64,000 nt of DNA from an uncultured Polyangiaceae bacterium (GCA_964599485.1 CAZRGL010000002.1:2780-66779), one strand, 5' to 3'; shown: positions 2,990 through 19,946, counted from the first letter of the stretch. Program-made: numbers and translations. Notes: generated by a model from the sequence alone, not told the origin.

Positions 2990-3703
2990 GTGGATTGCGC
3001 TGTGAAGCAGGGACTGTGGGTGTTGTTGTCGTTGCTACTGCTTGCTGGATGCTCCGATGACAGGTTCGCGATGCGGCTGACCGACGGCACTGCGCTGCAT
3101 TTGGACTGGGTAACCATCGGGGGTGCGAGCAAGCGGCTAGACCGGCTGCTGCTCACGGGCGATGGTTACGCGCGGCGTAACCGTGGCGGCAACCTCTACA
3201 CGCTGCTGGCCATGACCGAGGCGGAGCGTAATGAGCTCGCGAAGCTTCGGGCGCGCCACGGCCCCTTCGATCTCGAAGCACACACCGGGCCCAACGTGAA
3301 GTGGCCGAGCGCCCGCCGTCTTCGTTTCGACGGAAGAGGCGCAAGCAATCGCGAACATGACGTTGTAGCGTTCTCAGAGAAGATGCTCGGGCGCCTGGCT
3401 CACGAAGCGGTGCTCGCCCGCAGCTCCATCGTCGTGACTGCGCTGGTGCAGTCCTTAGAACGCGACGGCCGAGCCACTCTGAAGATCGACCGGGTGCTCA
3501 AAGGCTCAGGGCGTGTGCGCGCAGGGGACCGGGTCGAGACGTATCTACGTGACTCCCGCCCAGGTGCTGGCGGAGTAGTCACGGTGTTCACCCTTTCCGA
3601 ACCGACGCCAAAGGGCGGACGACACTGGCGCGCTGCCGAGACCGGTTACTTGAAGAGAAAAGTCGCCGACGTCGTCAAGCTCCTCGCCCGCCAAGAGCGA
3701 TAA
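2990..3703 (+). CDS. Hypothetical lipoprotein
   Basis: The track ORF 2705-3703 contains VKQGLWVLLSLLLLAGCSDD (signal peptide plus lipobox) right after in-frame GTGs at 2990 and 3002. The upstream 95 codons look like a non-coding extension from a TTG. The exact start is uncertain. Confidence 0.55.
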   Translation: MDCAVKQGLWVLLSLLLLAGCSDDRFAMRLTDGTALHLDWVTIGGASKRLDRLLLTGDGYARRNRGGNLYTLLAMTEAERNELAKLRARHGPFDLEAHTGPNVKWPSARRLRFDGRGASNREHDVVAFSEKMLGRLAHEAVLARSSIVVTALVQSLERDGRATLKIDRVLKGSGRVRAGDRVETYLRDSRPGAGGVVTVFTLSEPTPKGGRHWRAAETGYLKRKVADVVKLLARQER

Positions 3704-3789
3704 TCGGGCTGAGCCTCGAGTTGCTCACAACTTGAAAGGACAGTCGTTGTCGGAGCAGTCTGCCTCGGCCCAAGCAAACCAGCGCGCGG

Positions 3790-6700
3790 TCAGCCCTGGG
3801 TCGTGCGCCGCAGCCACATGCAGGAGGAAGCTGCGGCTGCGGGGTTGTCTTGAGGGCCGAGCCAGAGATCGCAACGGAGCCAGTGTTGGTCCTGCTCGGT
3901 GAGCTGCAAGGCGCCGCGCAGCTGGGTTCCGCTCGCGTCCGAGAGTTGTTTGGTGAACGTGTCGAGCCAGTATTGCAACCAGGCGCGGCAAGCGTCGGTA
4001 TCGTCCCGGCGACTCGAGCCGAGGTGCATCAATCGAAGATGTTGCGCCAACCGGCCCATTGGGAAGGTGGACCTGAACGAGCGCGCGCCGCTGCGCGTGT
4101 CGGCTTCTGTGGCGATCTGGTCGATGTCGAGCGCCATCAGCCCTCTGCTCTCGAACCCGCGCAGCAGCGATTGCGCTGCTGCAATCGCCCCGCTGCTCTG
4201 GATTGGCGCAGGTTGTCGTCCACTGACGGCGCCTTCGACGTAGGGCATTTTCTCTTCGATGGCGTAGGGCTCGCGCAGGCTGAGCTGCTCGCCAAGCAGG
4301 GCGACATGGCTGCTGGCAGGATCGGCGAAGAAGGCGCGCCAACCGTTTGATGGCGCAGTCTGCAACAGTCGGCGGGCTTCGGGTGTCGTTCCGGCGATGA
4401 GCCCGGCTTGGCTCTGGCGGGCAATGGTGGCGGCCGCCGTGAGCAAGGCGGGATCATCGATCGGATCGGCCATGACGATGGCGCCATAGGGAGTTGATTG
4501 GGCGTAGGCCTGCATCAGCGCCCGGCGCAGGGCCCCGTTGTTTATGACAGCGGCTGGCCCTTTGCTCCCGCAAGCCAAGAGATGGAGGCGACAATCAGCG
4601 TCGGGCATTGCGGCCTGAAGGCTTGCCAATGATCGCCAGCAGCGCTCATGTTGGCGCATGCGGGGATCGAACAGGATCTGATCGAGTGCTTTGGCTACGC
4701 CTCGGGCGATCGTCTGCTTGGCCCAGACGACTTCTTCGCGGTCGATCTTGTTGCGGCCGTGGGAAACGAGCACGTGCAACATGCCTGCGAGGGTGCCGCG
4801 CGCTACGGCGTAGGCCGGGTGATCGGTTGGCACCAGGCGGCTAATGATTGCGCGTCCGTACACTTCGGCGATCTCGTTGGCAGCGCTCAGCGCCGTTGAG
4901 CCCGCTGGCTGGCCAGCTCGCAGCTTGTCGCCCAGCCGCGGCAATAGTGCGGCAAGCTGGGTGGCGAAGTCGTCGATGATGGTCTCCCACCAGCCGAGGC
5001 CGATGTAGCTGAAGTACATCTTGGCCGTGTCGCCGAGTTGCTGGGCCAGCTTGCCGGGGGCCAAGTCTGCAAGACAGGTTGGCGCAAAGAGCTCGTTGCT
5101 CGCAGGTAGCGCGAGCGCTTCGTTTGCCGGCATTGAGAACTGCAGTTGTGGCTTCAGGGTGGCCATTGCGCTGTCGACGTCGGTGACCACGAGTGGCTGC
5201 TCGGTGGCGGCTGCGCCGCTGTGGGCCGTATCGATGGCGCCGAGCACCAGAAGACTCAATGGCAACGGCTCGCGCCTACCGAGTGATTGTCCGGCGCGGT
5301 GTTGCTCGAGTTGCAACCGCATTGGTAGGCGGCTCAGTTCGAAGGCGCGGGGCGGGGCGGCTGCTCGTTGGTGCTGCAACTTGACCAGCAAGCGCGTAAT
5401 CCCGATGCGCAACATGGCTCCGTCCTCGAGGGTTGCCTCCCCCCGGACGGGTTGACCGTCTAGCTCGATGCCAATCCTGCTACCGGCGTCGATGACCTTG
5501 GCGCCGCGTTCATCCACCGACAACATAGCGTGATGGTGCGCCACTAGCGGTCTGCGAAGGACTATGTCGCAATCCTGTGCGCGGCCGATCAATCGGCGCG
5601 GTCCGGCGCCAACCTCGAAGATTCGGTCTGTGGCCTCTTCACGCAATTGCAGGACGGTGCTGCCGGGTTGTTCCGGCTGCTCGGCGAAGGCTTTCGGATC
5701 GAGCAGACGTTGCAGCGCATCTTCGAGCTGCTTGGGTGTGTGCCTTCCGAAGCCCAGCCAGCCCAGGCGGCGGCCGAGGTGTTCCAACTCCGCGTTCGTC
5801 CAGCTCGGGATGCCAATGCGGATGAGCGGGTCGTGCTCAGCGGGACGCTGCGCGCGCAAGAACAGCTTCAGCCAGGGCGCGGCGCGGCGCAGCGAGGTGT
5901 CCGATGGCAAGACGCGCTCGTGCTCGACGTGCCACAGCCTCAAGTCGCCGTCCCGTCCGCCTGAGGCGAGCAGACGTCCGTCGGGAGTAAACGCCAGTGA
6001 CAAGATCACATTGTTGTGGCTGCCGAGGCGCACCAACTTGCCCGGGGTGTTCAGGGCGTGCAGGTGCACCCCGCCTCGACTGTCGCCGATCGCGACCAAG
6101 CCGCCGTCGTCGCTCAGCGCCAGGGTGCTGGCTCGCTCGATGGTAAGATCGCCTTTCACAACGCCCGCTTCAGCGTCGATCGTGATGAGTGTGCTGTTGC
6201 CGTCCAGCATTGCGGTCATGGAAGCACTAGGGGTGATCCGCAGCTGCTCGACATCGGCCGCTGCGTCGCTGAGCTGCCGCAGCTCTTGGCGCGCGCCGAG
6301 CACCCAAAGCGATAGCGCTCCGTCGCCAGCAACAACAGCCATCGCGTCGGCCTCCGCGGCGGGGGCCATCGCTTGGACGGCGCCGCAACCAACAGGATCG
6401 AGCCAGCGTTCGGCGGCGGTATCCCAGATGGTGATCCCCATTTGGCCGGCGACGAATAGCAACCGTCCGTCGCGTGACCACCTCAGCGCGCTTGGGTGTC
6501 GCTTGCCAGCCAACAGCTGGCTGTGGCCCTGATCGATACGCCAGATGCGCACATTGCCGCCGCATGCAGTGGCCACGACGCTTGCATCGGCAGCGATCGC
6601 GGCCGCTTCGAAGGGGCGCTTCGGCTCGACGACGTGCATCACCGCCCTCTGTTTGCCTTCCATCGTGTCGTGACGACGGACCTCAATCAGGTTGCGACCG

Positions 6701-9700
6701 GCGTCGTACATCACACTCGTGACCGAATCGCCATCAGGCGCCAGGCCCACCGCTTGAACCGGGCCGCCGAGATCGCGAATCGAGCGCCCCGCCCAGCTGC
6801 TGCGCAACACGCCTCGAGTCGTGCGATGGGCAATGCGGGTGGCAAGCGCTTGGGCGTCGCGGTGGCGGCGATAACCAGGTACGGCAGTGGTCTCGGCCAG
6901 ATAGAGCAGCGCCCCTGGCAAGTCGCCTAGCTTCAGGGCGCCTTCGGTACGTCCGAGCGCAGCACGGAAACGTTGGTGCTGCAGCTCGAGGACATCACTA
7001 TGGCGCGGTCGTGCCACCATGATGGGCGCAGCCGGGGCGTCGTGCAGGACCTGGACGAGGTGCAGATGTCCGCCGGCGGCCACCAGCACAGGATCGGCAT
7101 CTGCGCAGGCGATTGCATGCACATCGTCGAGCGGCGCGGCCGTCCGCAAACAGCGGCCGCTGTCCACGTGCCACAGCCGCAGCGTGCCGCTGCTGGACCA
7201 GGAAAGGACGTGACGACCGTCGTCACTCATGACAGCCCGGCGCGGCGCTGGTTCTTCGAGGCGGCGCACCAACGATCCGCTGACTGCGTCCCAGATGCTC
7301 AACCGGTAGTGGGATCGCTCGGCGTCCCATCCGCCCGACACAGCGCGACGCGCGTCCGCGGTCAGCGCCACCCAGTCTACGGCCAACTCATGGCGTAGCG
7401 TTCGGGTTACTTTGCCGTCGAGCAGTCGCAGCGTCACCGTGGCGTCGTCACTCGCGCTGGCCAGCAGGCGGCCATCGGCCATTGCGGTCACGCTGTTGAC
7501 CCGTCCGCCGTGCGTGCCGAGGTCCTGGTTCTGACCGGTGTCTACGTCGATCAGCACGATGCGCTTACCGACCGCAGCAGCCAGTTGGTGCTCGTTGCAC
7601 AGCGCCAATCCGGTTACACCGGGCATGTTGATGCGCTGCGAATCGGTTGCCGCGGTCTTCCACACGATGATGGACTCAGCGTTGGCTGCTGCTGCTACCG
7701 AGCCGTTCGTGCTCAAGGCGACGTGCTGTGCGTTGATCTTGGCGCCCTGCAGACTGGTGCCACCGGCCAGCATCCAGACCCGTACGCCATCATGGTGCGC
7801 GCTGGCCACGACACGCTCGTCGCGGCTGGTCGAAAGTGCGTGAGGCGGGCTGGGCAGCTCGGTCAGACGCTCGAGCTGGAAGCCAGCTTTGGTCCCATGA
7901 TAGGGCCCTGCCACCCGCTTCATGGTTGCCTCGGTGCGCGCCGTGCCCGTCAAGGCCCGCACACAACATGCTTGGGCTCGCTTGCGGTCGGCGCGTTCGT
8001 AATGAAGCCAAGCTTGCATCAAATGGGCGCGCCACTCCATTGCGTGCGAGCTGGTTGCCGCACGCATCCGCTCCACCGCTTGCTCGTCAGTGATGTCGCC
8101 GTTTCGCCATTCGATCAGGGCCAAGTTGTAGCTCGCCTCGAGATGATGCGGCTCGGCATCGAGTGCTTGTTTCCACGCTGATAGGGCTTCGCTGTTGCGT
8201 CCGATGTCGAGCATCGATGCGCCACGGTTGTTGTGCACCACCGCTTGCTCCTCGTGGGCTGCTGGATCGGGTCGCGCCTGACGCGCACCGCTGAGCTCGA
8301 CGTAGATGCTGCGGAGTGTGGCAGCGATCTCCAACATGTCGGTTGGTCGTTCGTTGGGGTCCCGCGCAAAACAATGCTGGAGCAGCCCCACCAGCCGCGG
8401 CGGCATCATTGGGATGCGCTCGTCCCAGCCGCCGTCATCGAGGTATTGGCGCAGCGCATGTGGCGCGAGCACGCCGCTCATCCAGCGAATCTCGCCGGTG
8501 AACATGTGAAGGACCGTCACAGCCCAGGACCAAACGTCCGTGCGCCGGGTCAGCTCGACGTCCTTCTTTCGGGCCGCTGCGGCTTGCTCTGGCGAGCAGA
8601 AAACCGGCGTCATGCCCGCATAGCCGGCCATCAGCGTCTTGTGACGGCCGCCCTTGCTCGACTCGGCTGCCGGTTCTGCCAGACGCGTGGTTTTCGCCAA
8701 GCCGAAGTCGGTCACCTTGGCGATGCCAGTCTTGGTGAGCATCACGTTGGCCGGCTTCATGTCCTGATGAATGAGGCCGTGGCGGTGCGCGTGATGCAGC
8801 CCGTAGCTCATCTGCAACGCAACATCGATCATCGAGGCCAGCAGCTGCTGGTCGGTCTTGCTCTTGGCCCGCCGGAATTTGCCTTTGTCGATCCAATCAG
8901 CCAGGCTTCCGCCGTCGACCAGCTCGGCGAAAAGCCAAGGTGCGCCAGAGCGCATGCGCACGTAGTAGCAGTCGACCGTGTGCGGATAGACGCCCAGCCG
9001 GGACCACGCTTCGGCCTCTTCGACGAAACCTTCCACCCCGCCTCGCTCGAGCAGCTCGACGCGCGGGATCTTCAGTGCCAGGTCGATCCCCCAACCAAGG
9101 TGGTGCACGCGGTACACCTTGCCCATCCCGCCGGCGCCAAGCGGCTCGATGACTTCGTATAGATGCCAGTCGCCCCCGTCGTCGTCGACGATTTGCTTGC
9201 GGCCTGCTCCGCCGCCGGCGCTGCCGAGCGACGATGACGGAGCCTGTTCTTTGGGGGGCTCTAACGCTCGGGGTTGGGCGGCGTCTTTTCGTTTCTCGTG
9301 TTCAGCAGCTGGTTCGGCAGCGTTCTTGGGGGGGCGTGTCTCTTCTGCGGCCCGCGCTCGTTTCCTTGCTCTGTGCTCAGCCGCTCGGTCGGCGCTGGCC
9401 TCCCGCCCCGCTTCTGGACCAAAACCCAGCTGCTCCCGACGGCGGAACAAGTAGTTCAGCAGCAGGTTGTTGCGGGTGTCACCGCAGTCGGGCCTGAGCA
9501 CGCAAACCAGCATGAAGTCGCGATCCGCGTCGTCATACCGCCTGTTGCGTGACAGCAGTACGCCTCGATTGATCAGCGCTTGCCAGTAGTCCGGTTGCAA
9601 GCTGATGGCCCGGTCGTAGTCCTCGTAGCTTTGCTCGCTGTCGCGTCCGATTCGCTCGGCCACGTGGCCCCGATAGCACCAGTATGCCGCGCGCTGGGGC

Positions 9701-10671
9701 GCCTGGGTGATCAGCTCGTCGAGGATCTCCCAAGCGGCCTGCATCTGTCCTGCGCGCGCGCAGGCATCAGCCCGTGCATAGTCGGGGTGGTCGATGCCTT
9801 CGACGGGGCTTTCTTTGGCGGGCAACAGCTCGGTGACAGCCTGCAGCACTTCGACGCGGGCTCCAGGAAGATCCCGGAAATGCTGCAATGCGCGCCGAAC
9901 TCCTCGCGCCTCCTGCTCCGTGCTCGGCACCACGCCCAATACCGAGCACGCCTGACCAGCGATCACGGCCATGTACAAGTCCTGAGACGCACACAAGCCA
10001 CGCAGCACCTGCTCGCGATCGTTGCGCTGCCGTGTCAGCAGGGCCTCCACCTTCTTGACCTGATCGCTGCCATCCGAACCGAGGTATCCACAACTTGGAG
10101 CCAGCAGTGTGCGTACGACGTCGTAGCCGGCCGCACCCAGCTCGCGGTCGTCGCCGATTGCCGTCCGCAGATGCTCCGCTACCAACCAGTCGATGATGCG
10201 TTCGACAGCAGGCCGATGGCGAATGCGATCATCGAGCCAAGGTTGACCGAGTGTGACCGCTTCGAGGCCGTAGCGAGGCGCGAGCGCCATGCCAAAGATC
10301 GGAGACAGGGCCGCAGTCGGCGGCTGTTGGCTGAGCATACGGCCGAATGCCTCGTCCAAGTTGCTGACGAAGCCGGGTTCTTGCACGCTGATCAAGCGCT
10401 CGTCGATATCGAGTAGCGAGAAGCCTGACTCGCGGTAGCCGCGGGTCAGCAGGTTTCGCAAATAGGGGCGCGCCCAGCTGACCAGCGGGCGGAACGACGG
10501 CACCCGGCGAACCGTGCGCAGTAGCAGCTCGATGGCCCATAGCGATCCGAAGCTCCCGTCGAGGGCGAAGGGTTTTCCGAGGCGGCGCTCGTGCTCGGCG
10601 CGCTCATCGGGCGACAGCCTGCCGATTTGCTTGCTCGAGCCGCTCTTGTCGCCAGTGTCGGGCCCCGCCAT
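3790..10671 (-). CDS. Giant multidomain protein (2293 aa): N-terminal unknown/TPR region, Ser/Thr kinase, TPR, multiple WD40 repeats, FHA, TssB(VipA)-like segment, divergent TssC(VipB)-like domain
   Basis: The start is set at ATG 10671 (MAGPDTGDK), 4 nt after the stop of the upstream TssC-like gene.
- Kinase (about 8330-9170): LGAGGMGKVY, ALKIP, HQDMKPANVML, DFGLAK, SPEQ.
- FHA (about 5400-5605): IGRAQDCDIVLRRPLVAHHHAMLSVDERGAKVIDAGSRIGIELDG.
- C-terminal tail (3793-5322): PLPLSLLVLGAIDT...QPLVVTDVDSAMATLKPQLQFSMP is TssB-like. ALDQILFDPRMRQHERCWRSLASL, YGAIVMADPIDDPALLTAAATIA and WLQYWLDTF...LRCDLWLGP are colinear with the neighbouring TssC-like protein. Confidence 0.85.
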   Translation of the reverse strand: MAGPDTGDKSGSSKQIGRLSPDERAEHERRLGKPFALDGSFGSLWAIELLLRTVRRVPSFRPLVSWARPYLRNLLTRGYRESGFSLLDIDERLISVQEPGFVSNLDEAFGRMLSQQPPTAALSPIFGMALAPRYGLEAVTLGQPWLDDRIRHRPAVERIIDWLVAEHLRTAIGDDRELGAAGYDVVRTLLAPSCGYLGSDGSDQVKKVEALLTRQRNDREQVLRGLCASQDLYMAVIAGQACSVLGVVPSTEQEARGVRRALQHFRDLPGARVEVLQAVTELLPAKESPVEGIDHPDYARADACARAGQMQAAWEILDELITQAPQRAAYWCYRGHVAERIGRDSEQSYEDYDRAISLQPDYWQALINRGVLLSRNRRYDDADRDFMLVCVLRPDCGDTRNNLLLNYLFRRREQLGFGPEAGREASADRAAEHRARKRARAAEETRPPKNAAEPAAEHEKRKDAAQPRALEPPKEQAPSSSLGSAGGGAGRKQIVDDDGGDWHLYEVIEPLGAGGMGKVYRVHHLGWGIDLALKIPRVELLERGGVEGFVEEAEAWSRLGVYPHTVDCYYVRMRSGAPWLFAELVDGGSLADWIDKGKFRRAKSKTDQQLLASMIDVALQMSYGLHHAHRHGLIHQDMKPANVMLTKTGIAKVTDFGLAKTTRLAEPAAESSKGGRHKTLMAGYAGMTPVFCSPEQAAAARKKDVELTRRTDVWSWAVTVLHMFTGEIRWMSGVLAPHALRQYLDDGGWDERIPMMPPRLVGLLQHCFARDPNERPTDMLEIAATLRSIYVELSGARQARPDPAAHEEQAVVHNNRGASMLDIGRNSEALSAWKQALDAEPHHLEASYNLALIEWRNGDITDEQAVERMRAATSSHAMEWRAHLMQAWLHYERADRKRAQACCVRALTGTARTEATMKRVAGPYHGTKAGFQLERLTELPSPPHALSTSRDERVVASAHHDGVRVWMLAGGTSLQGAKINAQHVALSTNGSVAAAANAESIIVWKTAATDSQRINMPGVTGLALCNEHQLAAAVGKRIVLIDVDTGQNQDLGTHGGRVNSVTAMADGRLLASASDDATVTLRLLDGKVTRTLRHELAVDWVALTADARRAVSGGWDAERSHYRLSIWDAVSGSLVRRLEEPAPRRAVMSDDGRHVLSWSSSGTLRLWHVDSGRCLRTAAPLDDVHAIACADADPVLVAAGGHLHLVQVLHDAPAAPIMVARPRHSDVLELQHQRFRAALGRTEGALKLGDLPGALLYLAETTAVPGYRRHRDAQALATRIAHRTTRGVLRSSWAGRSIRDLGGPVQAVGLAPDGDSVTSVMYDAGRNLIEVRRHDTMEGKQRAVMHVVEPKRPFEAAAIAADASVVATACGGNVRIWRIDQGHSQLLAGKRHPSALRWSRDGRLLFVAGQMGITIWDTAAERWLDPVGCGAVQAMAPAAEADAMAVVAGDGALSLWVLGARQELRQLSDAAADVEQLRITPSASMTAMLDGNSTLITIDAEAGVVKGDLTIERASTLALSDDGGLVAIGDSRGGVHLHALNTPGKLVRLGSHNNVILSLAFTPDGRLLASGGRDGDLRLWHVEHERVLPSDTSLRRAAPWLKLFLRAQRPAEHDPLIRIGIPSWTNAELEHLGRRLGWLGFGRHTPKQLEDALQRLLDPKAFAEQPEQPGSTVLQLREEATDRIFEVGAGPRRLIGRAQDCDIVLRRPLVAHHHAMLSVDERGAKVIDAGSRIGIELDGQPVRGEATLEDGAMLRIGITRLLVKLQHQRAAAPPRAFELSRLPMRLQLEQHRAGQSLGRREPLPLSLLVLGAIDTAHSGAAATEQPLVVTDVDSAMATLKPQLQFSMPANEALALPASNELFAPTCLADLAPGKLAQQLGDTAKMYFSYIGLGWWETIIDDFATQLAALLPRLGDKLRAGQPAGSTALSAANEIAEVYGRAIISRLVPTDHPAYAVARGTLAGMLHVLVSHGRNKIDREEVVWAKQTIARGVAKALDQILFDPRMRQHERCWRSLASLQAAMPDADCRLHLLACGSKGPAAVINNGALRRALMQAYAQSTPYGAIVMADPIDDPALLTAAATIARQSQAGLIAGTTPEARRLLQTAPSNGWRAFFADPASSHVALLGEQLSLREPYAIEEKMPYVEGAVSGRQPAPIQSSGAIAAAQSLLRGFESRGLMALDIDQIATEADTRSGARSFRSTFPMGRLAQHLRLMHLGSSRRDDTDACRAWLQYWLDTFTKQLSDASGTQLRGALQLTEQDQHWLRCDLWLGPQDNPAAAASSCMWLRRTTQG

Positions 10672-10675
10672 GCGG

Positions 10676-13170: not shown

Positions 13171-13218
13171 GATTCGGCCTCTCGCTGACCAGCAGACGAG
13201 ACTGAGGCGAACAACAGC

Positions 13219-15330
13219 TCAACCATAGAGCCAGCCTCGTTGATGGGCGTGATTTCGAAACGAGTCAGCAAGCTTGCGGTAGGCGCCGGCGATGGCACTG
13301 AGGCGCGTCCGCGACCAACGTCCGGCGGGCTGCTCGTCGCGGGCTCTTTTTCCCATTGCGGTGAAGAAAGCGTCATCTGGCATCGTTTCTTGGCCAGCAG
13401 GTATGAACTTGATCACCTCATCCATGAACGCTGCCGCTCGCTCGATGACGTTGAGCGCCACGATGCCTTCGTCTCGGTCGAGGCCGTCCAGCGACGCGGG
13501 CGTCTGTTTGGCGAATCCTTCGGCGAAACTGAAGAACTGCCCCGCGTCGATCAGCTCCGAAGGCGTATCTCCGGCGCTGTACTGGATGGGGCCATCGCCG
13601 CTCGTTGCCGCCATGTCGGCTTTGCTGATTCGAAACGTGAATGTTCTGGTTGCGGCGCCCTCATTGCGGCATTCGTACTGCACCACCACGTCGGCCTCCT
13701 CGGTGGTGATGGATTGTTTGCGACCCTGGACTGGGTAGTTGCGAAGGTTGAGATAGACGCTGCATTCGGCCAGTGACCGGGCGCGCAAGGGTTGGGTCGT
13801 GCCGTCAGCGTCGTCTGGCTCGGCCTCGTCCGCCTCTAGCTCGACGCGCGCTCGACCCATGACCTTGCCGTCTTGGACCATCATCGGTTGGGCAAACAAG
13901 CCTTGATCACCGCTGGCGCGGAACACCTTGTCTGCACTGTTCGCCAAGCGCACCACGGCCGCCCCATTCTGCATGCTGCAAGCGAGCACCACCCCGCGAA
14001 CGGGGATCGCGACGAGCAAGACCTTCGAGTCGAGCTTTTGGTGCAACACCTTCAATGCGCTCGGCACGAGCAACGCCTCGGTCGCGTGCTCACCGTGTAG
14101 GCTCGCCACACGTGGCGGATCGCCAACTACTTCGAGTCGCGGCGATTGCTTTTCGGCGAGCATGCGTGCCCCTTGGTCGACGAGCTCGTCGAAGCTGCGC
14201 GTGCCCAAGGTTTTTGCCGTCGCAAGATGGTGACCGTTGGCTGTCTCGGCAGCCAAGCAAACCATGGGGCTGACGATTGGGTGGGTTGGATCGGTGGGTG
14301 GGGCGAGCGGTCGAGTCAGCACAGAAGCCGTCAAGCTGGGATGATCTTGGCGCAGGATGTGAGGCTGATAGTCGCTGATCACGGCGCTGTTCAACGCAGC
14401 TCGACTTACCGGTGCGGCTGTGGCCAGCTGATCGTGGATGACTGCGGAGCTTGCCGACGCGATGCTGGCAGGGTCAGGCTTGGCAGGGTCAGGCTTGGCG
14501 GTGTCGGGTTTGGCAGCGTCTGGTTTGAGGGAGCCGATGGAAATGGGGCCACCCGGTTGCTGGACGGGCGCGCTGTTGGCTGGTTGGGAGGCTGGTCTGT
14601 CCACCCCCTTGAGCGTCGCGTCACTGAAGGCATGCGCTACCGCCTTGGGCGGGATGGGACCGGCACAGTTGAAGACGATCCCGTCGATGGGCGCGATGCG
14701 TAACTGCTCGAACAGCGTCTTGCCGTCCACTTTGGTGTGCGGCGGAACCGAGGCGCCATGCCGGGCGCGAAAAGCCTGGTAGGTGTCCTCGGCGGTGAAC
14801 ACGGCGGCGAGGCGGCGGCCCTGGTTGTCGGGCGCCATCATCAGCTGACTGCCCTGCCAGCAGAAGCGGTAGCCCGGGTAGTTGCGCAGCAGCTCGAACT
14901 GATTGTCGCGCTTGGAGTTGCCTTGCAGAATCTCTTCGACTCGCACCGCCTGGCCGAATTCCGCAAGCAAAGGCAGATCCTGAGCGTAGAGCGCCATGCC
15001 ATGGGGACTGGCCAAATCGAGGCCCACGCCGCGCGCTCCGCCCGGGATGTTACGGGCTAAGGATCCGCCCGCCGTGACGAAGAAGTTGTCGCCAATGGTC
15101 AGCTTGTTGGCCTGTGCGTACGCATCCATGGCCTGTTTGCTGGAGAAGGCGCACACCCACCACTCGCCCGCCGAGCCGGGGAACATCCACAGCCCCGACG
15201 ACCCATCGGCGGCGATACGGCTGGGCACGTGCCAGCTCGGGTGCTGCACCAGGTGACGAAACGCTTCCGAGTGGGAGCTACTGCCCTGCTTGTGGGCCGC
15301 CATGGCGTGCACGATTTGGGGTTCGGTCAT
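13219..15330 (-). CDS. Hypothetical protein (703 aa) with two N-terminal SseB-like repeats and a (KPDxA)n linker
   Basis: This is the real 5' part of the 1489-aa track ORF. The start is ATG 15330 (MTEPQIVHAMAAHKQG). Two similar modules (WHVPSRIAADGSSGLWMFPGSAGEWWVCAFSSKQAMDAY and YRFCWQGSQLMMAPDNQGRRLAAVFTAEDTYQAF) are reminiscent of the SseB family. The SseB assignment is tentative. Confidence 0.65.
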   Translation of the reverse strand: MTEPQIVHAMAAHKQGSSSHSEAFRHLVQHPSWHVPSRIAADGSSGLWMFPGSAGEWWVCAFSSKQAMDAYAQANKLTIGDNFFVTAGGSLARNIPGGARGVGLDLASPHGMALYAQDLPLLAEFGQAVRVEEILQGNSKRDNQFELLRNYPGYRFCWQGSQLMMAPDNQGRRLAAVFTAEDTYQAFRARHGASVPPHTKVDGKTLFEQLRIAPIDGIVFNCAGPIPPKAVAHAFSDATLKGVDRPASQPANSAPVQQPGGPISIGSLKPDAAKPDTAKPDPAKPDPASIASASSAVIHDQLATAAPVSRAALNSAVISDYQPHILRQDHPSLTASVLTRPLAPPTDPTHPIVSPMVCLAAETANGHHLATAKTLGTRSFDELVDQGARMLAEKQSPRLEVVGDPPRVASLHGEHATEALLVPSALKVLHQKLDSKVLLVAIPVRGVVLACSMQNGAAVVRLANSADKVFRASGDQGLFAQPMMVQDGKVMGRARVELEADEAEPDDADGTTQPLRARSLAECSVYLNLRNYPVQGRKQSITTEEADVVVQYECRNEGAATRTFTFRISKADMAATSGDGPIQYSAGDTPSELIDAGQFFSFAEGFAKQTPASLDGLDRDEGIVALNVIERAAAFMDEVIKFIPAGQETMPDDAFFTAMGKRARDEQPAGRWSRTRLSAIAGAYRKLADSFRNHAHQRGWLYG
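14467..14526. repeat. 15-bp in-frame tandem repeat x4 (two perfect copies, two degenerate)
   Basis: ggcagggtcaggctt occurs twice, followed by ggcggtgtcgggttt and ggcagcgtctggttt. On the minus strand these encode KPDAAKPDTAKPDPAKPDPA. Confidence 0.8.
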
Positions 15331-15432
15331 CAAGCGCGCTCCGTTGGTGGTTCTACCAGTCTGGGGCGCAGGATTGTGCCTTGTTATCGGTCTAGTAGAC
15401 GCCAGCTCGAGTTTCGCCAACCCTTGGCGAAC
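15331..15432. promoter_or_regulatory. Divergent intergenic region, presumed to hold the promoters for both arms of the sheath/ClpV/kinase locus
   Basis: This is a 102-nt gap between the minus-strand start at 15330 and the plus-strand start at 15433. I could not recognise a specific -35/-10 or -24/-12 element. Confidence 0.3.
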
Positions 15433-18400
15433 ATGAGTGCCTACTTGAGGATCGCCGCCAGCGAGAAAGGGGGGGCCGCGGGCCAGATCGCACGCTTTGA
15501 TGAGGAAGGCGGCGTCGCGGTGCTTGCGGATGGGACCGGCGGAGCGGCAGGGGAGGCCATGGCTCGGGCTGCAGTCGAACCGGCGTTGAAGACGCTCCTG
15601 GCCGAGGGCTCGGTCGAGAAAGCCTTCGCGTCTGCCCACCAAGCCGCTTGCACGCAGAGTGAGGATGAAGGCGCTGGCGCGAGCTTCATCGCGGCTCAGA
15701 TTGACCGGACCGGCACGTTGGTGGTCGGTCATCTCGGCAATGTGCGCGTATACATCGCGCGCAAGACGAACAGGCGCCGGGGTCTTCCGAAACCGCCGGC
15801 ACCGCTCTTCTGTCCCCCTGTTCAGGTCGGCTCGGTCAAGCCGATCGAGACGGCCATGAGCATGGTCTGCCTCAGTCGCGATCACAGCGCGGTTTGCGAT
15901 ATGGTCGAGGGCGGGCATTTGTCGGCGGAGGATGGGCGCAAGCATCCGCTGCGCGGGCGGGTGAGCAAGGGCTTGCGGGCCGGTCCGCTGACGCCTCCAA
16001 CGGTGACGCACATGCGGCTGTTTCCGGATGATCGCGTGCTGCTCTGCTCGGATGGGCTGTGGGATGCAGTGAGCGATCGCGACATGCTTGCTGCGCTGGC
16101 TGAGCACCATTTTGCAGACGACGCTTGTGAGGCATTGGCCGAGCGGGCAGGGAGCAAGTGCTCCTTTGCGGCCGTAGTCATCGATTGTTTTCCCGATCGC
16201 GAGCGCGACGAAGCGCGACGCAATTTGCAGCGCGGACACAAAGCGCAACGCAAGAAACGGGCGAGCAAGAAATCCGGCCGCGAAAAACAGAAGCGTCCCA
16301 GCAGCGAGCGACCCCGTAGCGAGCAGCCCCGTAGCAACAAGCGCCGCAGCAGTGAGCCGCCGAAAAACGGCGACATCATTCGGCGAATGGGGCGCAATCT
16401 CACCGCGCTGGCCATAGCTGGCAAGCTCGATCCGGTCATCGGGCGAAAGCGTGAGGTGCAGCAGCTCGCACAAGCACTCGTGGCGCGGCGCAAAGCCAAC
16501 GCGGTTCTCATCGGTCCGCCCGGCGTAGGCAAGACCGCCATCGTCGAAGGGCTGGCCTTGCAAATGGCAACTGGTGGACTGGGTGATCGTTTTGCCGACA
16601 AGCGTATCGTCGAGATGTCGATGGGCGCGCTGGTCGCAGGCACCAAATATCGCGGCCAGTTCGAAGAGCGACTGCAGGAAGTCATCAGGATTGCCGAGGA
16701 TGATCCAGAGCTGGTCATCTTCATGGACGAGCTGCACACGGCCATGGGCGCCGGTGCGACTAGCGGTAGCGCCACCGATGCTGCGGATTTGCTCAAGCCG
16801 GCGCTGTCGCGCGGCAGCATGCGGCTCATCGGCGCCACTACGACCGAGGAGTACCAGAAGTACATCGCCCGCGACGCTGCCTTCGAACGCAGATTCATCG
16901 TCATCGACGTCAAAGAGCCTTCGGTCGGGCACACCATCGAGATTCTCCAGGGGCTGCGCCCTTCCTTCGAGAAGCACTACCAAGTGCAAATCGTCGATGA
17001 GGCCTTCGAGGCCGCGGCAACGCTTTCCAAGCGCTACATTCCGGGGCGGTACTTGCCCGACAAAGCAATCGATCTGATCGATCGCGCCTGCGCCCGTCTG
17101 CTGGTGCCGCTCACGCCCACCCCGGGCGACGGTAGTACGCTTCGGCGTGATCACATCGTCAAGCTCGTGGCCGACATGTGCGATGTGGACATCGAGTTGA
17201 TCGGCCGCGATGTGCGCGAAGCACGGGAGCGGGTGGGCGAGCTGCTGAGCTACCTCACCGCGCGCCTCTTCGGGCAAGACGCGGCGATGGGTGTGGTGGC
17301 CCGGCAGCTCAAGCGCGCTTACGGCGGACTCAAGGATCCGAAACGTCCCATCGCTTCGTTCCTGTTTGCGGGACCGACCGGTGTCGGCAAGACCGAGACC
17401 GCCAAGGTCGTTTCCGAGTTCTTGTTCGGGGACCGCGATCGGGTTCTGCGGATCGACATGTCGGAATACGAGAGCCGCTGGGCCGTCTCGCGGCTGATTG
17501 GGGCACCGCCGGGCTACATCGGTCACGACGAGGAAGGGCAGCTGACGGGTCCCATGCTCCGGCAAGGGGCGCGGGTCGTGCTCTTCGACGAAATCGAAAA
17601 AGCCCATCCCGACGTGCTGCTGGTGTTGCTGCAGATTCTCGACGAGGGGCGGCTGACCGACTCGCACGGCCGTGTTGCTTCCTTTCACGAAGCGGTCATC
17701 GTCATGACCTCCAACCTGCTGCAGTCTGGCCCGGTTGCGCGCAAAGCCAAGCAGCTGGGCTTCGCATTGCCCAAGAAGGGCGCGCAGTCGGAAGAGGCCG
17801 AGGAACAGGTCGAGGATGACAGCGCGGCGCGCAGCGAGCTCGCCAAACAGCTGCGCCCCGAGCTAGTCGGTCGAATCGGCGCCGTGGTGACCTTCTCGTC
17901 GCTTTCGCCCGAGGCGGCGAAAGCCATCGTGAACAAATGTTGCAACAGCGCCCTGCAGCGACTGCAAGCGCAAGGCGTGGCGCTGCAGTTGCCGGATGGT
18001 TTCCAACAGCGTGTGCTCGAACGTTTGGGCGATCTGCGCTTCGGGGCGCGCATGGTCGAGCGTTTGGTCGACGAAGAGGTCGGCAAGCTGCTCGATCGGT
18101 CCCAGCCTAGTGCTGGCCGGTCGGATGCCAGCATGGGAGCGAGCATGCACGCCAGCATGCGAGGCTCAGCACGAAACGACGTGGCCATGTTGGCGCTCGA
18201 GCTGCCGGAGGGGGTGGATGCCGACGAGGCCAAGCTTCATGCGTTGGTCGCCAAGGTGTGCATCGGCGCGCAAGCTGCCCAGGTGCGCCATGTGGATGCG
18301 TGTGAGGGCCGCGTCGTCGTTCTCGCTGCGACCTTGCGCGCTGCTCTGGCCATCGCGCGGCGCCATGACAGCTTGGATGGCAAAGGGCTGCGACGCTTGG

Positions 18401-18648
18401 TGCATCGGGGCCGGGTGCAGCTCGACGAACAAGGCAATCCTCGCGGCGTCGGCTTGCATGTGCTCGAGATGCTTCGCGGTGTGCTTGCTGAGCATCGAGA
18501 GACGGCGGGCCAGTTGGTGCTCTCTTCAGCTGCTCACGAGGCGCTCGACGCCGACGCGCGCGCCGGCTTCGTGCCGCTCGAGAGCGAGACCTTGCGGGCA
18601 ATGGGTAGCGACATCAGCTTGTGGACGGACGCAGGGAGGACGGCGTGA
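15433..18648 (+). CDS. PP2C (PPM) phosphatase fused to a ClpV/ClpA-type double AAA+ unfoldase, with an unknown C-terminal extension of about 250 aa
   Basis: Start at ATG 15433 (MSAYLRIAASEKGG).
- PP2C: VLADGTGGAAGEAMA, VGHLGNVRVY, LLCSDGLWDAV.
- AAA+ D1: LDPVIGRKREV, GPPGVGKTAIVEGLA, KYRGQFEERL, VIFMDELH, LIGATTTEEY.
- AAA+ D2: GQDAAM, FAGPTGVGKTE, RIDMSEY, LIGAPPGYIGH, VVLFDEIEKAHPDV, ILDEGRLTD.
I see no long coiled-coil M domain between D1 and D2. Confidence 0.85.
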   Translation: MSAYLRIAASEKGGAAGQIARFDEEGGVAVLADGTGGAAGEAMARAAVEPALKTLLAEGSVEKAFASAHQAACTQSEDEGAGASFIAAQIDRTGTLVVGHLGNVRVYIARKTNRRRGLPKPPAPLFCPPVQVGSVKPIETAMSMVCLSRDHSAVCDMVEGGHLSAEDGRKHPLRGRVSKGLRAGPLTPPTVTHMRLFPDDRVLLCSDGLWDAVSDRDMLAALAEHHFADDACEALAERAGSKCSFAAVVIDCFPDRERDEARRNLQRGHKAQRKKRASKKSGREKQKRPSSERPRSEQPRSNKRRSSEPPKNGDIIRRMGRNLTALAIAGKLDPVIGRKREVQQLAQALVARRKANAVLIGPPGVGKTAIVEGLALQMATGGLGDRFADKRIVEMSMGALVAGTKYRGQFEERLQEVIRIAEDDPELVIFMDELHTAMGAGATSGSATDAADLLKPALSRGSMRLIGATTTEEYQKYIARDAAFERRFIVIDVKEPSVGHTIEILQGLRPSFEKHYQVQIVDEAFEAAATLSKRYIPGRYLPDKAIDLIDRACARLLVPLTPTPGDGSTLRRDHIVKLVADMCDVDIELIGRDVREARERVGELLSYLTARLFGQDAAMGVVARQLKRAYGGLKDPKRPIASFLFAGPTGVGKTETAKVVSEFLFGDRDRVLRIDMSEYESRWAVSRLIGAPPGYIGHDEEGQLTGPMLRQGARVVLFDEIEKAHPDVLLVLLQILDEGRLTDSHGRVASFHEAVIVMTSNLLQSGPVARKAKQLGFALPKKGAQSEEAEEQVEDDSAARSELAKQLRPELVGRIGAVVTFSSLSPEAAKAIVNKCCNSALQRLQAQGVALQLPDGFQQRVLERLGDLRFGARMVERLVDEEVGKLLDRSQPSAGRSDASMGASMHASMRGSARNDVAMLALELPEGVDADEAKLHALVAKVCIGAQAAQVRHVDACEGRVVVLAATLRAALAIARRHDSLDGKGLRRLVHRGRVQLDEQGNPRGVGLHVLEMLRGVLAEHRETAGQLVLSSAAHEALDADARAGFVPLESETLRAMGSDISLWTDAGRTA

Positions 18649-19946
18649 AGGTCACGCTCACAGTCATCGAAGGGCCCAATTTGGGCCGCGAATTCGCCTA
18701 CGAGCAACGGGATCGCTTTCTGGTGGGGCGGACGCCAGCGGCGCATCTGTGCGTCTCACGAGATCGCTTCTTTTCGCGGCATCATTTCTTCGTCGAGGTC
18801 AATCCGCCCAACGTCTACCTGGTCGATTTACACAGCACCAACGGCACCAGCGTCAACAGTCGCAAGAACAAGGTCGAGGAGGCCACGCTCGAGCATGGCG
18901 ACATCATCATCGGGGGCGAAACGAAGCTCCGGGTGACCATCGACGACGGCGTGGACGAGTCGGCTGCCGCTGAGGCAAACGAGTCGCGCGAGCAGGTCTG
19001 TTGTCTGAAGTGTGGCAAACATGCCGAACGCGAACGGGCGCGCTCGAGCTCGGAGTCCGTGACCTTCATTTGCCAAGGTTGCCAGGAGAACCTGCGCGGC
19101 CAGCCGATCTTGCCGCAGGGTTATCGTGTGGTTCGTGAGCTCGGTCGCGGCAGCATGGGAAGCGTGTATCTGGCCGAGGACGGTGCCGGCGCGCAGCGGG
19201 CGATCAAGCTCGTCATGCCGAATGCGGCCTTGTCGGCTAAGGTGCGCAACCAGTTCCTCGAACAATCCAGAGCGCAAGCGCGCCTCGACCACCCGCGCAT
19301 CGTGCGCGTCTACGGCGTCGAGCAGCCGCGCGAGGGGGTGTTCTGCGTCGTGATGGAGCACATCGATGGACAGGCGCTCTCGAAACTCATCGCCAATCAG
19401 AACAAGCTCCCAGCTCACAAGGTCGTGCTGATTGCAGCCCAGCTCCTCGAAGGGCTCGACTATGCCCACGGGCGCGCGATGGTTCATCAGAACATCAAGC
19501 CCGCCAACATTCTGCTCGCTCCCGATCGGGGCGAAGCGTCGGGCGGCCTCGCTGTCAAGCTGGCCGATTTCGGCCTGGCGCAGACCTACGAGCTGACCGG
19601 CGCGAGCGGTTTTGCGCGCCTGGACGAAGTGGACGAGTCGCTCGGCTACAAGGCCCCTGAGCAGATCATCGACTTTCGCGGCGTCGATCCGAGGTCGGAT
19701 CTGTACGCTGTTGCGGCGGTCGGCTACCGGATGCTCTGCGGTGAATTGCCCTACGCGCTCGATGCGGGCCGCGATCCCTTCTTGGCGCTGCTCGAAGACG
19801 AAATCGTGCCGCTGAGGAAGCGAGATCGGACAGTGGATTCTGCGTTGGCCGCTGTGATCGAGCGGGGCCTGGCCCGACGCCCCGCCGACCGCTACAGCTC
19901 TGCGGCGAAGATGCGTGAAGCACTGTTGGCTGCCGCGCTCCGCTGA
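18621..19946 (+). CDS. FHA domain, CxxC...CxxC zinc ribbon and a Ser/Thr kinase-like domain in which the catalytic Asp is replaced (HQN): predicted pseudokinase
   Basis: - FHA: FLVGRTPAAHLCVSRDRFFSRHHFFVEVNPPNVYLVDLHSTNGTSVN.
- Zn ribbon: CCLKCGK...FICQGCQ.
- Kinase: GRGSMGSVYLA, AIKLV, MVHQNIKPANILL (aac codon at 19491-19493), DFGLAQ, APEQ.
An alternative start, GTG 18645, overlaps the upstream stop (GTGA). Confidence 0.85.
   Translation: MDGRREDGVKVTLTVIEGPNLGREFAYEQRDRFLVGRTPAAHLCVSRDRFFSRHHFFVEVNPPNVYLVDLHSTNGTSVNSRKNKVEEATLEHGDIIIGGETKLRVTIDDGVDESAAAEANESREQVCCLKCGKHAERERARSSSESVTFICQGCQENLRGQPILPQGYRVVRELGRGSMGSVYLAEDGAGAQRAIKLVMPNAALSAKVRNQFLEQSRAQARLDHPRIVRVYGVEQPREGVFCVVMEHIDGQALSKLIANQNKLPAHKVVLIAAQLLEGLDYAHGRAMVHQNIKPANILLAPDRGEASGGLAVKLADFGLAQTYELTGASGFARLDEVDESLGYKAPEQIIDFRGVDPRSDLYAVAAVGYRMLCGELPYALDAGRDPFLALLEDEIVPLRKRDRTVDSALAAVIERGLARRPADRYSSAAKMREALLAAALR

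Follow-up and report, generated by a model that had tools for sequence, protein, structure and literature searches.

A six-gene locus (3790-19946) in the 64,000-nucleotide stretch of DNA analysed here, which comes from an uncultured Polyangiaceae bacterium and is called the window below, encodes T6SS sheath parts fused to Ser/Thr signalling domains. As its likeliest function we tentatively infer a secretion-independent module derived from a T6SS sheath, the assembly of which would be under Ser/Thr phosphorylation control and which an unfoldase would dismantle and perhaps degrade. Pfam domains and profile comparisons bear out the fusion of sheath parts to signalling domains described in the initial annotation. 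The proposal made there of a non-secretory sheath polymer keeps its support from the sheath homology, the signalling fusion and the absence of other core genes, but the ClpV-like unfoldase, the phosphatase control and the pseudokinase do not stand as worded. The features of the locus are listed below.

3790-10671, minus strand: giant 2293-aa protein (Pfam; public gene call of the same length; orthologue P0026)
9763-10617, minus strand: N-terminal domain of the giant protein, aa ~19-303, of unknown fold (BLASTP)
8341-9159, minus strand: kinase domain of the giant protein, aa 505-777 (Pkinase 1e-31; motif alignment with both orthologues)
5884-7527, minus strand: WD40 beta-propeller region of the giant protein, aa 1049-1596 (multiple WD40 and beta-propeller Pfam families)
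5383-5604, minus strand: FHA domain of the giant protein, aa 1690-1763 (Pfam FHA 6.8e-11; sequence inspection)
4939-5271, minus strand: TssB/VipA-like tail segment, aa ~1801-1911 of the giant protein (hhalign; solved-chain profile search)
3838-4749, minus strand: TssC/VipB-like tail segment, aa ~1975-2278 of the giant protein (hhalign; Pfam VipB; solved chains; Foldseek)
10676-11992, minus strand: TssC-like protein, 438 aa (Pfam VipB 1.3e-60, VipB_2 1.6e-15)
11992-13170, minus strand: 392-aa protein of unknown function, predicted all-helical (translationally coupled to the TssC-like gene)
13219-15330, minus strand: 703-aa protein with an SseB-like N-terminal domain, a low-complexity linker and an uncharacterised C-terminal half (Pfam)
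15331-15432, no strand: divergent intergenic region, 102 nt (sequence reading)
15433-18648, plus strand: 1071-aa PP2C-AAA+ protein (Pfam, NCBIfam; orthologue P0032)
17755-17763, plus strand: LGF tripeptide, aa 775-777 (aligns with the VGF ClpP-docking loop of ClpC)
18645-19946, plus strand: 433-aa FHA-kinase protein (Pfam; motif inspection)

Gene layout and conservation

The six gene calls and their junctions were re-read from the sequence and are as the initial annotation had given them. The genes form two divergent arms, with the minus arm starting at an ATG at 15328-15330 and the plus arm at an ATG at 15433; in the orthologous Polyangiaceae locus, a 297-aa gene sits between the arms where the window has its 102-nt spacer. 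The four nucleotides CCGC (10672-10675) separate the stop of the TssC-like gene from the ATG of the giant gene, and the start of the latter at 10671 matches both the public gene call and the alignment to the orthologue. The 392-aa and TssC-like genes overlap in TGATG (11990-11994), and the 1071-aa and 433-aa genes in GTGA (18645-18648). No convincing membrane segment was seen in any of the six proteins.

The arrangement is conserved, as all six genes recur in synteny and in the same divergent layout on one contig binned as Polyangiaceae. Identities between orthologues range from 46 to 66% (giant protein 57% over 2283 aa, TssC-like protein 53%, 392-aa protein 46%, 703-aa protein 56%, AAA+ protein 65%, FHA-kinase 66%). 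The flanking genes on both sides are unrelated between the two genomes and the relative has two extra genes inserted, so that the six genes appear as a conserved unit. No mobile-element flanks were found around the module, its neighbours being ordinary metabolic and regulatory genes. A search of representative genomes from 185,579 species found no relative of the giant tail, and only two were found among 1.84 billion representative proteins.

Sheath-like proteins and the search for other T6SS genes

By sequence, the 438-aa protein is unambiguously a TssC/VipB homologue, as first proposed from its resemblance to TssC. It scored 254.2 bits against TIGR03355, just below the equivalog cutoff of 271.5, its best solved chain was the TssC of 5urw (3.3e-61), and it aligns with canonical TssC over nearly the full length, C-terminal gp25-like domain included. 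The nearest non-self relatives are 28-36% identical, the closest being P0002, a fused TssB-TssC protein encoded in a locus with TssE/TssF. No free tssB gene was found in any six-frame ORF, the TssB HMM and profile matching the tail of the giant protein only. Elsewhere, another orphan TssC-like gene adjoins transposases.

Four independent tests (Pfam, a profile search of solved chains, profile-profile comparison and predicted fold) identify the last 510 residues of the giant protein as a divergent fusion of a TssB-like and a TssC-like part, and the sheath-like nature ascribed to this tail is thus upheld as far as sequence and modelling reach. With hhalign, the TssB segment matched 16 TssB sequences (probability 95.7%, E 9.2e-9, 107 columns) and the TssC segment matched the TssC family (probability 98%, E 2.6e-13, 302 columns). 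Among solved chains, the tail profile matched TssB 5urw_1A (5.8e-5), VipA (1e-3) and TssC (6e-8 and 3.6e-7). Family models gave a mixed outcome: the Pfam match to VipB was weak and sub-threshold (9.4e-6) and VipA (PF05591) gave no Pfam match, despite the hhalign result for TssB, and the score against TIGR03355 was 17.8 bits (cutoff 271.5). BLASTP aligned the tail with the adjoining TssC-like protein (8e-6). The AlphaFold model of the tail, of moderate quality (pLDDT 73), had a T6SS sheath as its best Foldseek match, followed by the R-pyocin sheath, with low TM-scores to sheath structures (0.28 to 0.38). In the alignment, the TssC part lacks ~100 internal residues of canonical TssC; the N-terminal strand of TssB (LPLSLLVLG in the giant tail) and the hairpin and strand at the C-terminus of TssC are kept in both tail orthologues. 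Outside its orthologue, the tail is closest to P0028, a fused TssB-TssC protein from a locus with TssK.

The initial annotation had recognised no tube, spike, baseplate or membrane-complex genes in the window, and every search agreed with it. Pfam scans of ORFs spanning 1 to 57935 found no T6SS core genes besides the sheath parts, nor did phmmer comparison of the six-frame window ORFs with every ORF of 14 T6SS/sheath-gene loci. Ad hoc HMMs for the Hcp, VgrG and TssA, E, F, G, K, L and M families, the identity of which was verified with Pfam, were then run against six-frame ORFs of the window, of the orthologous contig and of the DNA past the window end. None of these families was found in the 64 kb, in the 9 kb beyond or in the stretch of 35 kb that was read from the 49.5-kb related contig, the matches being limited to the TssC-like protein, the tails and the AAA+ protein. 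TssJ, covered by the Pfam scans of window ORFs alone, was not found in them. No Hcp, VgrG or baseplate homologue that would make this an ordinary split T6SS was therefore found among the ORFs or just outside the window. Since both genomes are known from metagenomic contigs alone, a complete T6SS may be encoded elsewhere in them.

The two remaining minus-arm proteins gave few leads. The 392-aa protein was without match in Pfam, NCBIfam and PADLOC, its syntenic orthologue is its only relative, and its AlphaFold model was unusable (pLDDT 36). It does not resemble TssB (hhalign probability 0.07%). The description of the 703-aa protein as SseB-like proved right for its N-terminal domain (14980-15309), which exceeds the Pfam threshold (3.5e-7), and its C-terminal ~180 aa have stand-alone homologues on actinomycete replicons. 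Profiles of the 392-aa protein, the 703-aa protein and the giant N-terminal domain each matched the TssE/F/G/K and TssA families with a probability below 4%.

Kinases, FHA domains and the PP2C-AAA+ unfoldase

From the N-terminus, the giant protein consists of its N-terminal domain, TPR, a non-RD Hanks kinase, TPR, two WD40 propeller regions, an atypical FHA domain and the sheath-like tail. The N-terminal domain, for which no match to Pfam or to any T6SS family profile was found, recurs in N-terminal position in the TssC-like protein of the related Polyangiaceae contig (BLASTP, 28-29% identity, E 4e-19 to 9e-21). The catalytic loop of the kinase reads HQD (8761-8769), which makes it a non-RD kinase. 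The catalytic Lys (in LALK), the catalytic-loop Asp (HQD) and DFG are present in both orthologues, and by these motifs the domain is predicted to be a competent Hanks-type kinase. In the FHA domain of both orthologues, the Gly-Arg pair is retained and the conserved Ser (SxxH) and Asn (NG) are substituted; this domain is thus without two phosphate-contacting residues.

The 433-aa protein combines a canonical FHA domain (18720-18908), a CxxC..CxxC zinc ribbon (18999-19085) and a kinase domain (19122-19907). Its catalytic loop is HQN (19485-19493), with the catalytic Asp replaced by Asn, and the label of pseudokinase fits the protein of this genome; it does not extend to the orthologue, which has HRD. 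The kinase is therefore predicted to be catalytically dead only here.

The 1071-aa protein, which aligns with P0032 over 99% of its length, has a PP2C/SpoIIE-like domain (15433-16182), a Lys/Arg/Ser-rich linker, a double AAA+ core of ClpC/ClpA type (16420-18093) and a C-terminal extension of ~180 aa (18094-18645) that is conserved. The core has intact Walker A/B motifs and pore loops and aligns with B. subtilis ClpC (E 6e-70). The initial annotation had placed this unfoldase with the ClpV accessories of T6SS, an assignment that was rejected: it scored 490-520 bits with ClpC-type proteins against 338-370 bits with ClpV of real T6SS loci, it reached 518.6 bits with the ClpV/TssH model TIGR03345 (cutoff 885), and Pfam found no Clp_N, ClpV N-domain or M-domain/UVR in it. 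Between the D1 lid and D2 lie 69 linker residues, compared with about 120 in ClpC. The orthologue has VGF in place of LGF, and the ClpP-docking motif is absent from the three ClpV sequences of T6SS loci that were compared. With two intact AAA+ modules and a predicted ClpP loop, the protein fits the ClpC/ClpA class. No ClpP gene was found in the cluster; the retained docking tripeptide makes degradation, and not recycling alone, plausible. The PP2C-like domain expected from the initial annotation is present, scoring 68.5 bits against the Stp1 model (cutoff 230), and keeps the DGxGG and DG motifs. Its final DN, the last metal-binding motif, is changed to CS in the window and SA in the orthologue, and the phosphatase control proposed with it is for this reason uncertain.

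Possible roles and comparison with known systems

In the reading that we tentatively favour, the TssC-like protein and the giant tail, the two sheath-type subunits of the module, would co-assemble into a cytoplasmic oligomer or filament. With the giant subunit, the assembly would acquire a sensor (TPR, WD40), an FHA-type domain and a non-RD Ser/Thr kinase that is constitutively competent. Subunit association would in this way be coupled to phosphorylation, which the 433-aa protein might read or relay through its phosphothreonine-binding FHA domain, zinc ribbon and kinase/pseudokinase. The PP2C-like domain, in place of the usual unfoldase N-domain, would recognise and perhaps dephosphorylate the phosphorylated assembly. 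The ClpC/ClpA-like unfoldase would then extract subunits and, because the ClpP-docking loop is kept, probably feed them to ClpP. The 392-aa and SseB-like 703-aa proteins could be assembly partners or cargo. In E. coli, VipA and VipB reportedly assemble into tubules that ClpV takes apart. The TssB/TssC pair HsiB1/HsiC1 polymerises into tubules alone, without tube or baseplate (PMC3597794). Against a polymer count the lack of a TssB belonging to the TssC-like protein, the ~100 TssC residues missing from the tail, and the moderate model with its low TM-scores. The loss of DN in the PP2C-like domain and of the phosphate-binding residues in the giant FHA domain also means that parts of the phospho-wiring may be degenerate.

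Alternatively, these genes could serve an ordinary T6SS from another part of the genome as its accessory or regulatory module, with their sheath-like products inserting into, capping or nucleating a canonical sheath. Kinase signalling and a dedicated unfoldase would thereby reach that sheath, in an arrangement that amounts to the PpkA/PppA/Fha pathway in elaborate, fused form. Both sheath-like parts do descend from T6SS sheaths, with P0002 and P0028 located in TssE/TssF or TssK loci, the kinase, FHA and PP2C domains are classical post-translational regulators of T6SS, and the DNA inspected covers 73 kb of one genome and 35 kb of the other. We nevertheless regard this as rather unlikely given the high divergence of these parts (at most 36% identity to any other TssC, and the Pfam results for the tail), an unfoldase outside the ClpV lineage and with a ClpP loop, the absence of a PpkA-type membrane anchor from all module proteins, and the recurrence of the six genes together in two genomes with no T6SS genes found nearby.

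The missing TssC-core residues and poor family-model scores of the tail, and the absence of a TssB for the TssC-like protein, would also suit a model without any polymer. The TssB/TssC-like parts would have decayed to a heterodimerisation or docking handle, tethering the TssC-like protein to the giant kinase, or to a recognition element for the unfoldase, with the abundance of the complex set by ClpC-like/ClpP proteolysis. The ClpP-docking loop agrees with this, and the N-terminal domain common to the orthologous TssC-like protein and the giant protein suggests a pairing outside the sheath fold. It is unlikely, however, as the elements that link sheath protomers are kept in both tails and the TssC-like protein covers nearly the whole of canonical TssC. 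It appears improbable that the module serves a social bacterium in conflict or defence, with WD40/TPR sensing an invader and the kinase triggering sheath-like polymerisation or Clp proteolysis as an abortive response. The combination of a giant kinase with TPR/WD40, FHA and AAA+ does resemble the repeat-rich NTP-dependent conflict systems of multicellular prokaryotes (PMC7159879), and the extremely patchy distribution and the transposases beside the other orphan TssC-like gene point the same way. In PADLOC-DB 2.0, however, only generic kinase and AAA matches were obtained, with none for the TssC-like, 392-aa and 703-aa proteins, and the module has no recognisable toxin/effector domain and ordinary genes at its flanks.

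Several known systems share parts with the secretion-independent module that we favour. It resembles T6SS TssB/TssC (VipA/VipB) and ClpV/TssH in its VipB and VipB_2 families, its TssB-/TssC-like tail and the adjoining Clp/Hsp100 double-ring unfoldase, but has no tube, spike, baseplate, TssA, membrane complex (TssJ by Pfam only) or free TssB; its unfoldase, without the ClpV N-domain and M-domain, is nearer to ClpC, and one of its sheath subunits forms the C-terminal end of a kinase of 2293 aa. As in the PpkA/PppA/Fha1 pathway, a kinase of Hanks type, a PP2C-like domain and FHA domains adjoin sheath genes. In the module, however, a sheath subunit carries the kinase and FHA domains, the unfoldase carries the PP2C-like domain and the second kinase carries another FHA; no transmembrane/periplasmic sensor is present, and both the PP2C and the giant FHA domain have lost the residues described above. 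In the ClpC/ClpP and McsB system of Firmicutes, the ClpC N-domain is said to recognise a phospho-arginine mark and to deliver the marked protein to ClpP. The module likewise has a ClpC-like core with a ClpP tripeptide and a co-encoded kinase, and its unfoldase N-terminal domain could recognise a phosphorylated substrate; this domain is PP2C-like and not Clp_N, M-domain and MecA-type control are absent, and the kinases are Ser/Thr and not arginine kinases. Finally, the fused TssB-TssC proteins of genuine T6SS loci (P0002, P0028) are 495-560 aa long and encoded among baseplate genes, in contrast to the fusion in the module, which is appended to a kinase-WD40-FHA protein away from such genes; they share with it the union of TssB and TssC in one polypeptide and are the nearest relatives of the sheath parts of the module.

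The six-gene module and its conservation

The six open reading frames of the module (3790-19946) and their junctions are exactly as described in the initial annotation, and the proteins match those of the public gene calls for the same metagenomic contig. The start codons of the two divergent arms were read in the sequence at 15330 and 15433, with 102 nt between them. Only 4 nt separate the stop of the TssC-like gene from the ATG of the giant gene, a TGATG overlap joins the 392-aa and TssC-like genes, and a GTGA overlap joins the AAA+ and FHA-kinase genes. No convincing membrane segment was found in any of the six proteins.

Products of the six genes and their identity to the orthologues on a related contig
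Minus strand: 703-aa SseB-like protein, 56%
11992-13170, minus strand: 392-aa protein, 46%
Minus strand: 438-aa TssC-like protein, 53%
Minus strand: giant 2293-aa kinase-WD40-FHA protein with a sheath-type tail (aa 1784-2293), 57% over 2283 aa
15433-18648, plus strand: 1071-aa AAA+ unfoldase with a PP2C-like domain, 65%
18645-19946, plus strand: 433-aa FHA-kinase, 66%, with the 4-nt overlap there too

A search with the tail of the giant protein against 1.84 billion representative proteins uncovered only two real relatives and one borderline hit:

2246-aa protein of the same architecture, 46% identical in the tail
Fragment at a contig end
Fused TssB-TssC protein, borderline (8e-6)

The 2246-aa protein is encoded on a 49.5-kb contig binned as Polyangiaceae, which carries the complete set of six genes in an identical divergent layout. 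The arrangement, whose conservation had been left as a question by the initial annotation, hence recurs on one Polyangiaceae-binned contig. As two unrelated genes are inserted in the module there and the flanks differ from those of the window, the six genes are a conserved unit, kept together in two genomes with no other T6SS genes nearby. The inserts, at 9046-9939 and 4601-5518 of that locus (L042), lie inside the module on the opposite strand, encode a 297-aa protein with a weak TerB match and a 305-aa protein with a hydrophobic segment, and have no counterpart in the window. Patterns derived from the alignments of the 703-aa protein and of the tail were found in none of the representative genomes of 185,579 species (GTDB), and a search of JGI metagenome contigs, which covered the 703-aa patterns, was likewise without a match. 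The module is very rare and known from metagenomes only.

Two of the six proteins are of unknown function. The 392-aa protein sits in the usual place of tssB and was considered as a disguised TssB, a possibility rejected by hhalign (probability 0.07%); its AlphaFold model (pLDDT 36) was too poor for use, and a word-based search returned only the protein itself. Against every T6SS family, profile comparisons stayed below 4% probability for the 392-aa and 703-aa proteins and for the giant protein's N-terminal domain. Compared with JGI and ENA contigs that are otherwise near-identical to the window, the 392-aa gene has an in-frame 15-nt deletion, with the loss of 'ARSEL' near aa 349; the protein encoded on those contigs is 397 aa long, and the Polyangiaceae orthologue has five residues at this position. 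The contigs are too alike for strain polymorphism to serve as a gauge of selection. The C-terminal ~180 residues of the 703-aa protein (13219-13830, aa ~500-703) have stand-alone homologues, for example at 3315-3866 of comparison locus L044, which are annotated as hypothetical and occur on replicons of Micromonospora, Streptomyces and Nonomuraea (tblastn 3e-6 to 5e-4). These homologues match no Pfam family.

Two sheath-type proteins

The module encodes two T6SS-derived sheath-type proteins, one of which forms the C-terminus of a sensor kinase. The 438-aa protein matched the Pfam families VipB (1.3e-60) and VipB_2 (1.6e-15), and scored 254 bits with TIGR03355, slightly below the equivalog cutoff of 271.5. 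Its top solved relative was the TssC chain of 5urw (3.3e-61), the Myxococcus xanthus sheath. These matches mark the 438-aa protein as a genuine homologue of TssC/VipB. The nearest other TssC proteins are 28-36% identical to it, and a search with the TssC-like alignment gave ordinary TssC only, at 27-42% identity. The Polyangiaceae TssC-like protein, 1103 aa in length, begins with ~290 residues that share homology with the giant protein's N-terminal domain (E about 1e-20); therefore, both sheath-type proteins can carry the same N-terminal domain.

In the giant protein, the following domains precede the tail (Pfam):

TPRs
aa 505-777: kinase
aa 1049-1596: WD40 propellers
aa 1690-1763: FHA

The assignment of the last 510 residues as TssB/TssC-like was the weakest part of the initial annotation, and several independent tests now agree with it. 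The tail matched Pfam VipB at 9.4e-6 (25.3 bits, slightly below threshold) and the neighboring TssC-like protein by BLASTP at 8e-6. A profile of three tail sequences matched solved TssC chains (6e-8 and 3.6e-7), the TssB chain 5urw_1A (5.8e-5) and VipA chains (near 1e-3). Using hhalign, the tail aligned with the TssC family over 302 columns (probability 98%, E 2.6e-13) and with a TssB set of 16 sequences taken from ordinary T6SS loci over 107 columns (probability 95.7%, E 9.2e-9). Structure prediction, proposed earlier as a check, gave an AlphaFold model (pLDDT 73.4, pTM 0.65) whose top PDB match was a T6SS sheath (E 9e-4, probability 1.0), followed by an R-type pyocin sheath, with TM-scores to these matches that are low (0.28 to 0.38). 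In an alignment with fused TssB-TssC proteins, the tail retains the N-terminal TssB strand motif as well as the C-terminal TssC helix, hairpin and last strand, and is without about 100 internal residues of canonical TssC.

Further sheath-type genes were noticed in other loci. Solitary truncated TssB-TssC-like fusions are encoded in two Polyangia genomes at L011 10001-11413 (P0023, 470 aa) and L047 10001-11449 (P0022, 482 aa), without the C-terminal gp25-like domain and without T6SS neighbors; one adjoins two M23 peptidases, a kinase and a response regulator, and the other has polysaccharide lyases and sigma factors around it, on a contig of 3.2 Mb. The orphan TssC-like protein P0003 (L005 8910-11889) shares 36% identity with that of the window and is encoded in a tight three-gene operon, preceded by an LRV/HEAT-repeat protein and followed by a weakly DUF6197-like 175-aa protein, with transposases and a DnaB/primase pair nearby. 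Its LRV-repeat and DUF6197-like partners were considered as kin of the 392-aa and 703-aa proteins and found to be unrelated. A 654-aa TssB-TssC fusion (P0016, L009 10001-11965) is encoded in a locus with PAAR-like toxin, Imm11, LysM and CsgG-like genes, with no recognizable baseplate or tube genes within 10 kb upstream or 3 kb downstream.

The unfoldase and the phospho-signaling domains

The plus arm encodes a ClpC-like unfoldase with a PP2C-like N-domain and an FHA-(pseudo)kinase. The initial annotation took the AAA+ protein for a ClpV equivalent, but it is closer to ClpC/ClpA and does not qualify as a ClpV. After the orthologue, its nearest relatives are ClpC-type proteins (490-520 bits), compared with 338-370 bits for ClpV of real T6SS loci, and its D2 module is nearest to Bacillus subtilis ClpC (6e-70). 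It has no Clp_N domain, and only 69 residues are found where ClpC has ~120 and ClpV ~175, so the M-domain is lacking. Its Walker A/B motifs are complete, as are the two pore loops. In line with the VGF of ClpC, the loop that docks to ClpP, the protein has the tripeptide LGF and its orthologue VGF, and no comparable loop is present in the three ClpV sequences compared. Clp ATPases with a loop of this type are expected to dock to ClpP, so the unfoldase may degrade its substrate and not merely recycle it.

The PP2C-like domain retains the DGxGG and DG motifs, and its final DN metal-binding motif is replaced by CS in the window and by SA in the orthologue. Judging from these residues, the domain may have no phosphatase activity; a weak phosphatase and a phospho-binding domain are both conceivable. 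Its position on a ClpC-like motor suggests an undescribed way to direct Ser/Thr-phosphorylated proteins to Clp machines.

After the D2 small domain, the unfoldase carries a C-terminal extension of ~180 aa (18094-18645) that the orthologue shares and for which neither Pfam families nor T6SS profiles gave a match. Outside the family, the unfoldase is most closely related to P0033 (L043 10001-12601), an 866-aa ClpC-like AAA+ protein that lacks Clp_N and has an LGF loop. Genes for HSP70, GrpE, two DnaJ-like proteins and several large proteins without a Pfam match accompany that of P0033, in what may be a dedicated chaperone system.

The kinase of the giant protein is of the non-RD type (HQD) and keeps Lys and DFG in the window as well as in the orthologue; the FHA domain of the giant protein lacks the conserved Ser and Asn, also in both. 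The FHA domain of the 433-aa protein keeps the canonical Arg/Ser/His/Asn residues, and its CxxC..CxxC ribbon is present. The description of this small kinase as dead holds for the window, where Asp is changed to Asn (HQN), but not for the orthologue, which has HRD. Four further Hanks-type kinases and one FHA-sigma54 activator are encoded in the window (25051-26430, 36678-37808, 48332-50443, 59420-60898 and 27994-29328). They are consistent with a myxobacterial genome, and none is kept beside the module in the related contig.

Other T6SS genes and the proposed function of the module

The absence of any other T6SS core gene, noted initially, held up in three approaches within the DNA examined. 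Pfam scans of the remaining ORFs (1 to 57935) found no T6SS gene, and these ORFs were typical of myxobacteria (several Hanks kinases, the FHA-sigma54 activator, acyl-CoA dehydrogenases, hydrolases). In a phmmer comparison of every six-frame ORF of 50 aa or more with the full ORF sets of 14 T6SS or sheath-gene loci, matches were limited to the TssC-like protein, the AAA+ protein and kinases. Family HMMs were built by clustering the ORFs of canonical loci, with the identity of Hcp, VgrG and TssA/E/F/G/K/L/M verified with Pfam and TssJ having no model of its own. Searched against six-frame ORFs from the window, from the orthologous contig and from the DNA past the window end, they matched only TssC-like proteins, tails and AAA+ proteins. 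No T6SS gene is present in the 9 kb of contig past the window end, and the contig extends only about 3 kb upstream, mostly the end of a 1124-aa gene. At L048 7205-8737 (~2.3-3.8 kb past the window end), a 510-aa protein with AhpC/redoxin and protein kinase domains adjoins a radical SAM gene.

With a likelihood that we place a little short of even, the module specifies a phospho-governed co-assembly of sheath-type parts that is taken apart by the unfoldase. The two sheath-type parts would co-assemble, with phosphorylation by the built-in kinase and FHA-mediated binding governing assembly. The unfoldase would recognize the phosphorylated assembly via its PP2C-like domain and then pull out subunits, probably for ClpP. 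Such extraction can be likened to the recycling of contracted sheaths by ClpV and to phospho-arginine targeting, in which phospho-arginine marks proteins to ClpC. VipA/VipB polymerize into tubules without tube or baseplate. Tubules built by TssB/TssC pairs in the absence of both are described in PMC3597794.

The module could instead be an accessory of a T6SS encoded elsewhere. We regard this as rather unlikely. The module does not itself qualify as a T6SS, with no tube, spike, baseplate or membrane complex detected in the DNA searched. A non-polymeric docking handle inside a signaling/proteolysis complex is, in our view, unlikely. A conflict system is improbable: PADLOC matches were generic only, on which a known defense system was rejected, and neither a toxin domain nor mobile-element flanks came to light. 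The co-assembly model, taken further, depicts a self-contained, non-secretory cytoplasmic assembly of sheath subunits, written by a Ser/Thr kinase fused to one of the subunits and erased by a ClpC-like unfoldase, which senses phosphorylation via a PP2C-derived domain and feeds ClpP; this fuller version is put forward tentatively. To the same tentative degree, the module may represent a type of system not seen before, derived from a contractile sheath and without a role in secretion.

To our knowledge, the sheath proteins of contractile injection systems occur solely within machines having a tube and baseplate. Literature searches on DUF877, on orphan TssC and on kinases fused to TssB-TssC yielded nothing of relevance, and no paper was found on kinase-fused sheath subunits or orphan sheath modules of this kind. 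If the fuller version is true, the module would be the first contractile-injection-system sheath exapted as a signaling scaffold or cytoskeletal element, and Ser/Thr phosphorylation would play the part in it that phospho-arginine has in tagging proteins for Clp proteolysis. A conserved module in which sheath-type subunits, one of them fused to a sensor kinase, are joined only by a ClpP-type unfoldase and signaling partners would be evidence that the sheath fold is reusable beyond injection, and would give a simple system (two subunits and one unfoldase) for the control of sheath assembly and disassembly by phosphorylation. The module would surprise a T6SS or Clp specialist, and its function is one that we infer. 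Fused TssB-TssC proteins exist in genuine T6SS loci too, so the fusion itself is not new. Among known systems, the module most resembles a combination of the T6SS sheath/ClpV cycle with the threonine-phosphorylation pathway of T6SS and a ClpC-type phospho-tag protease.
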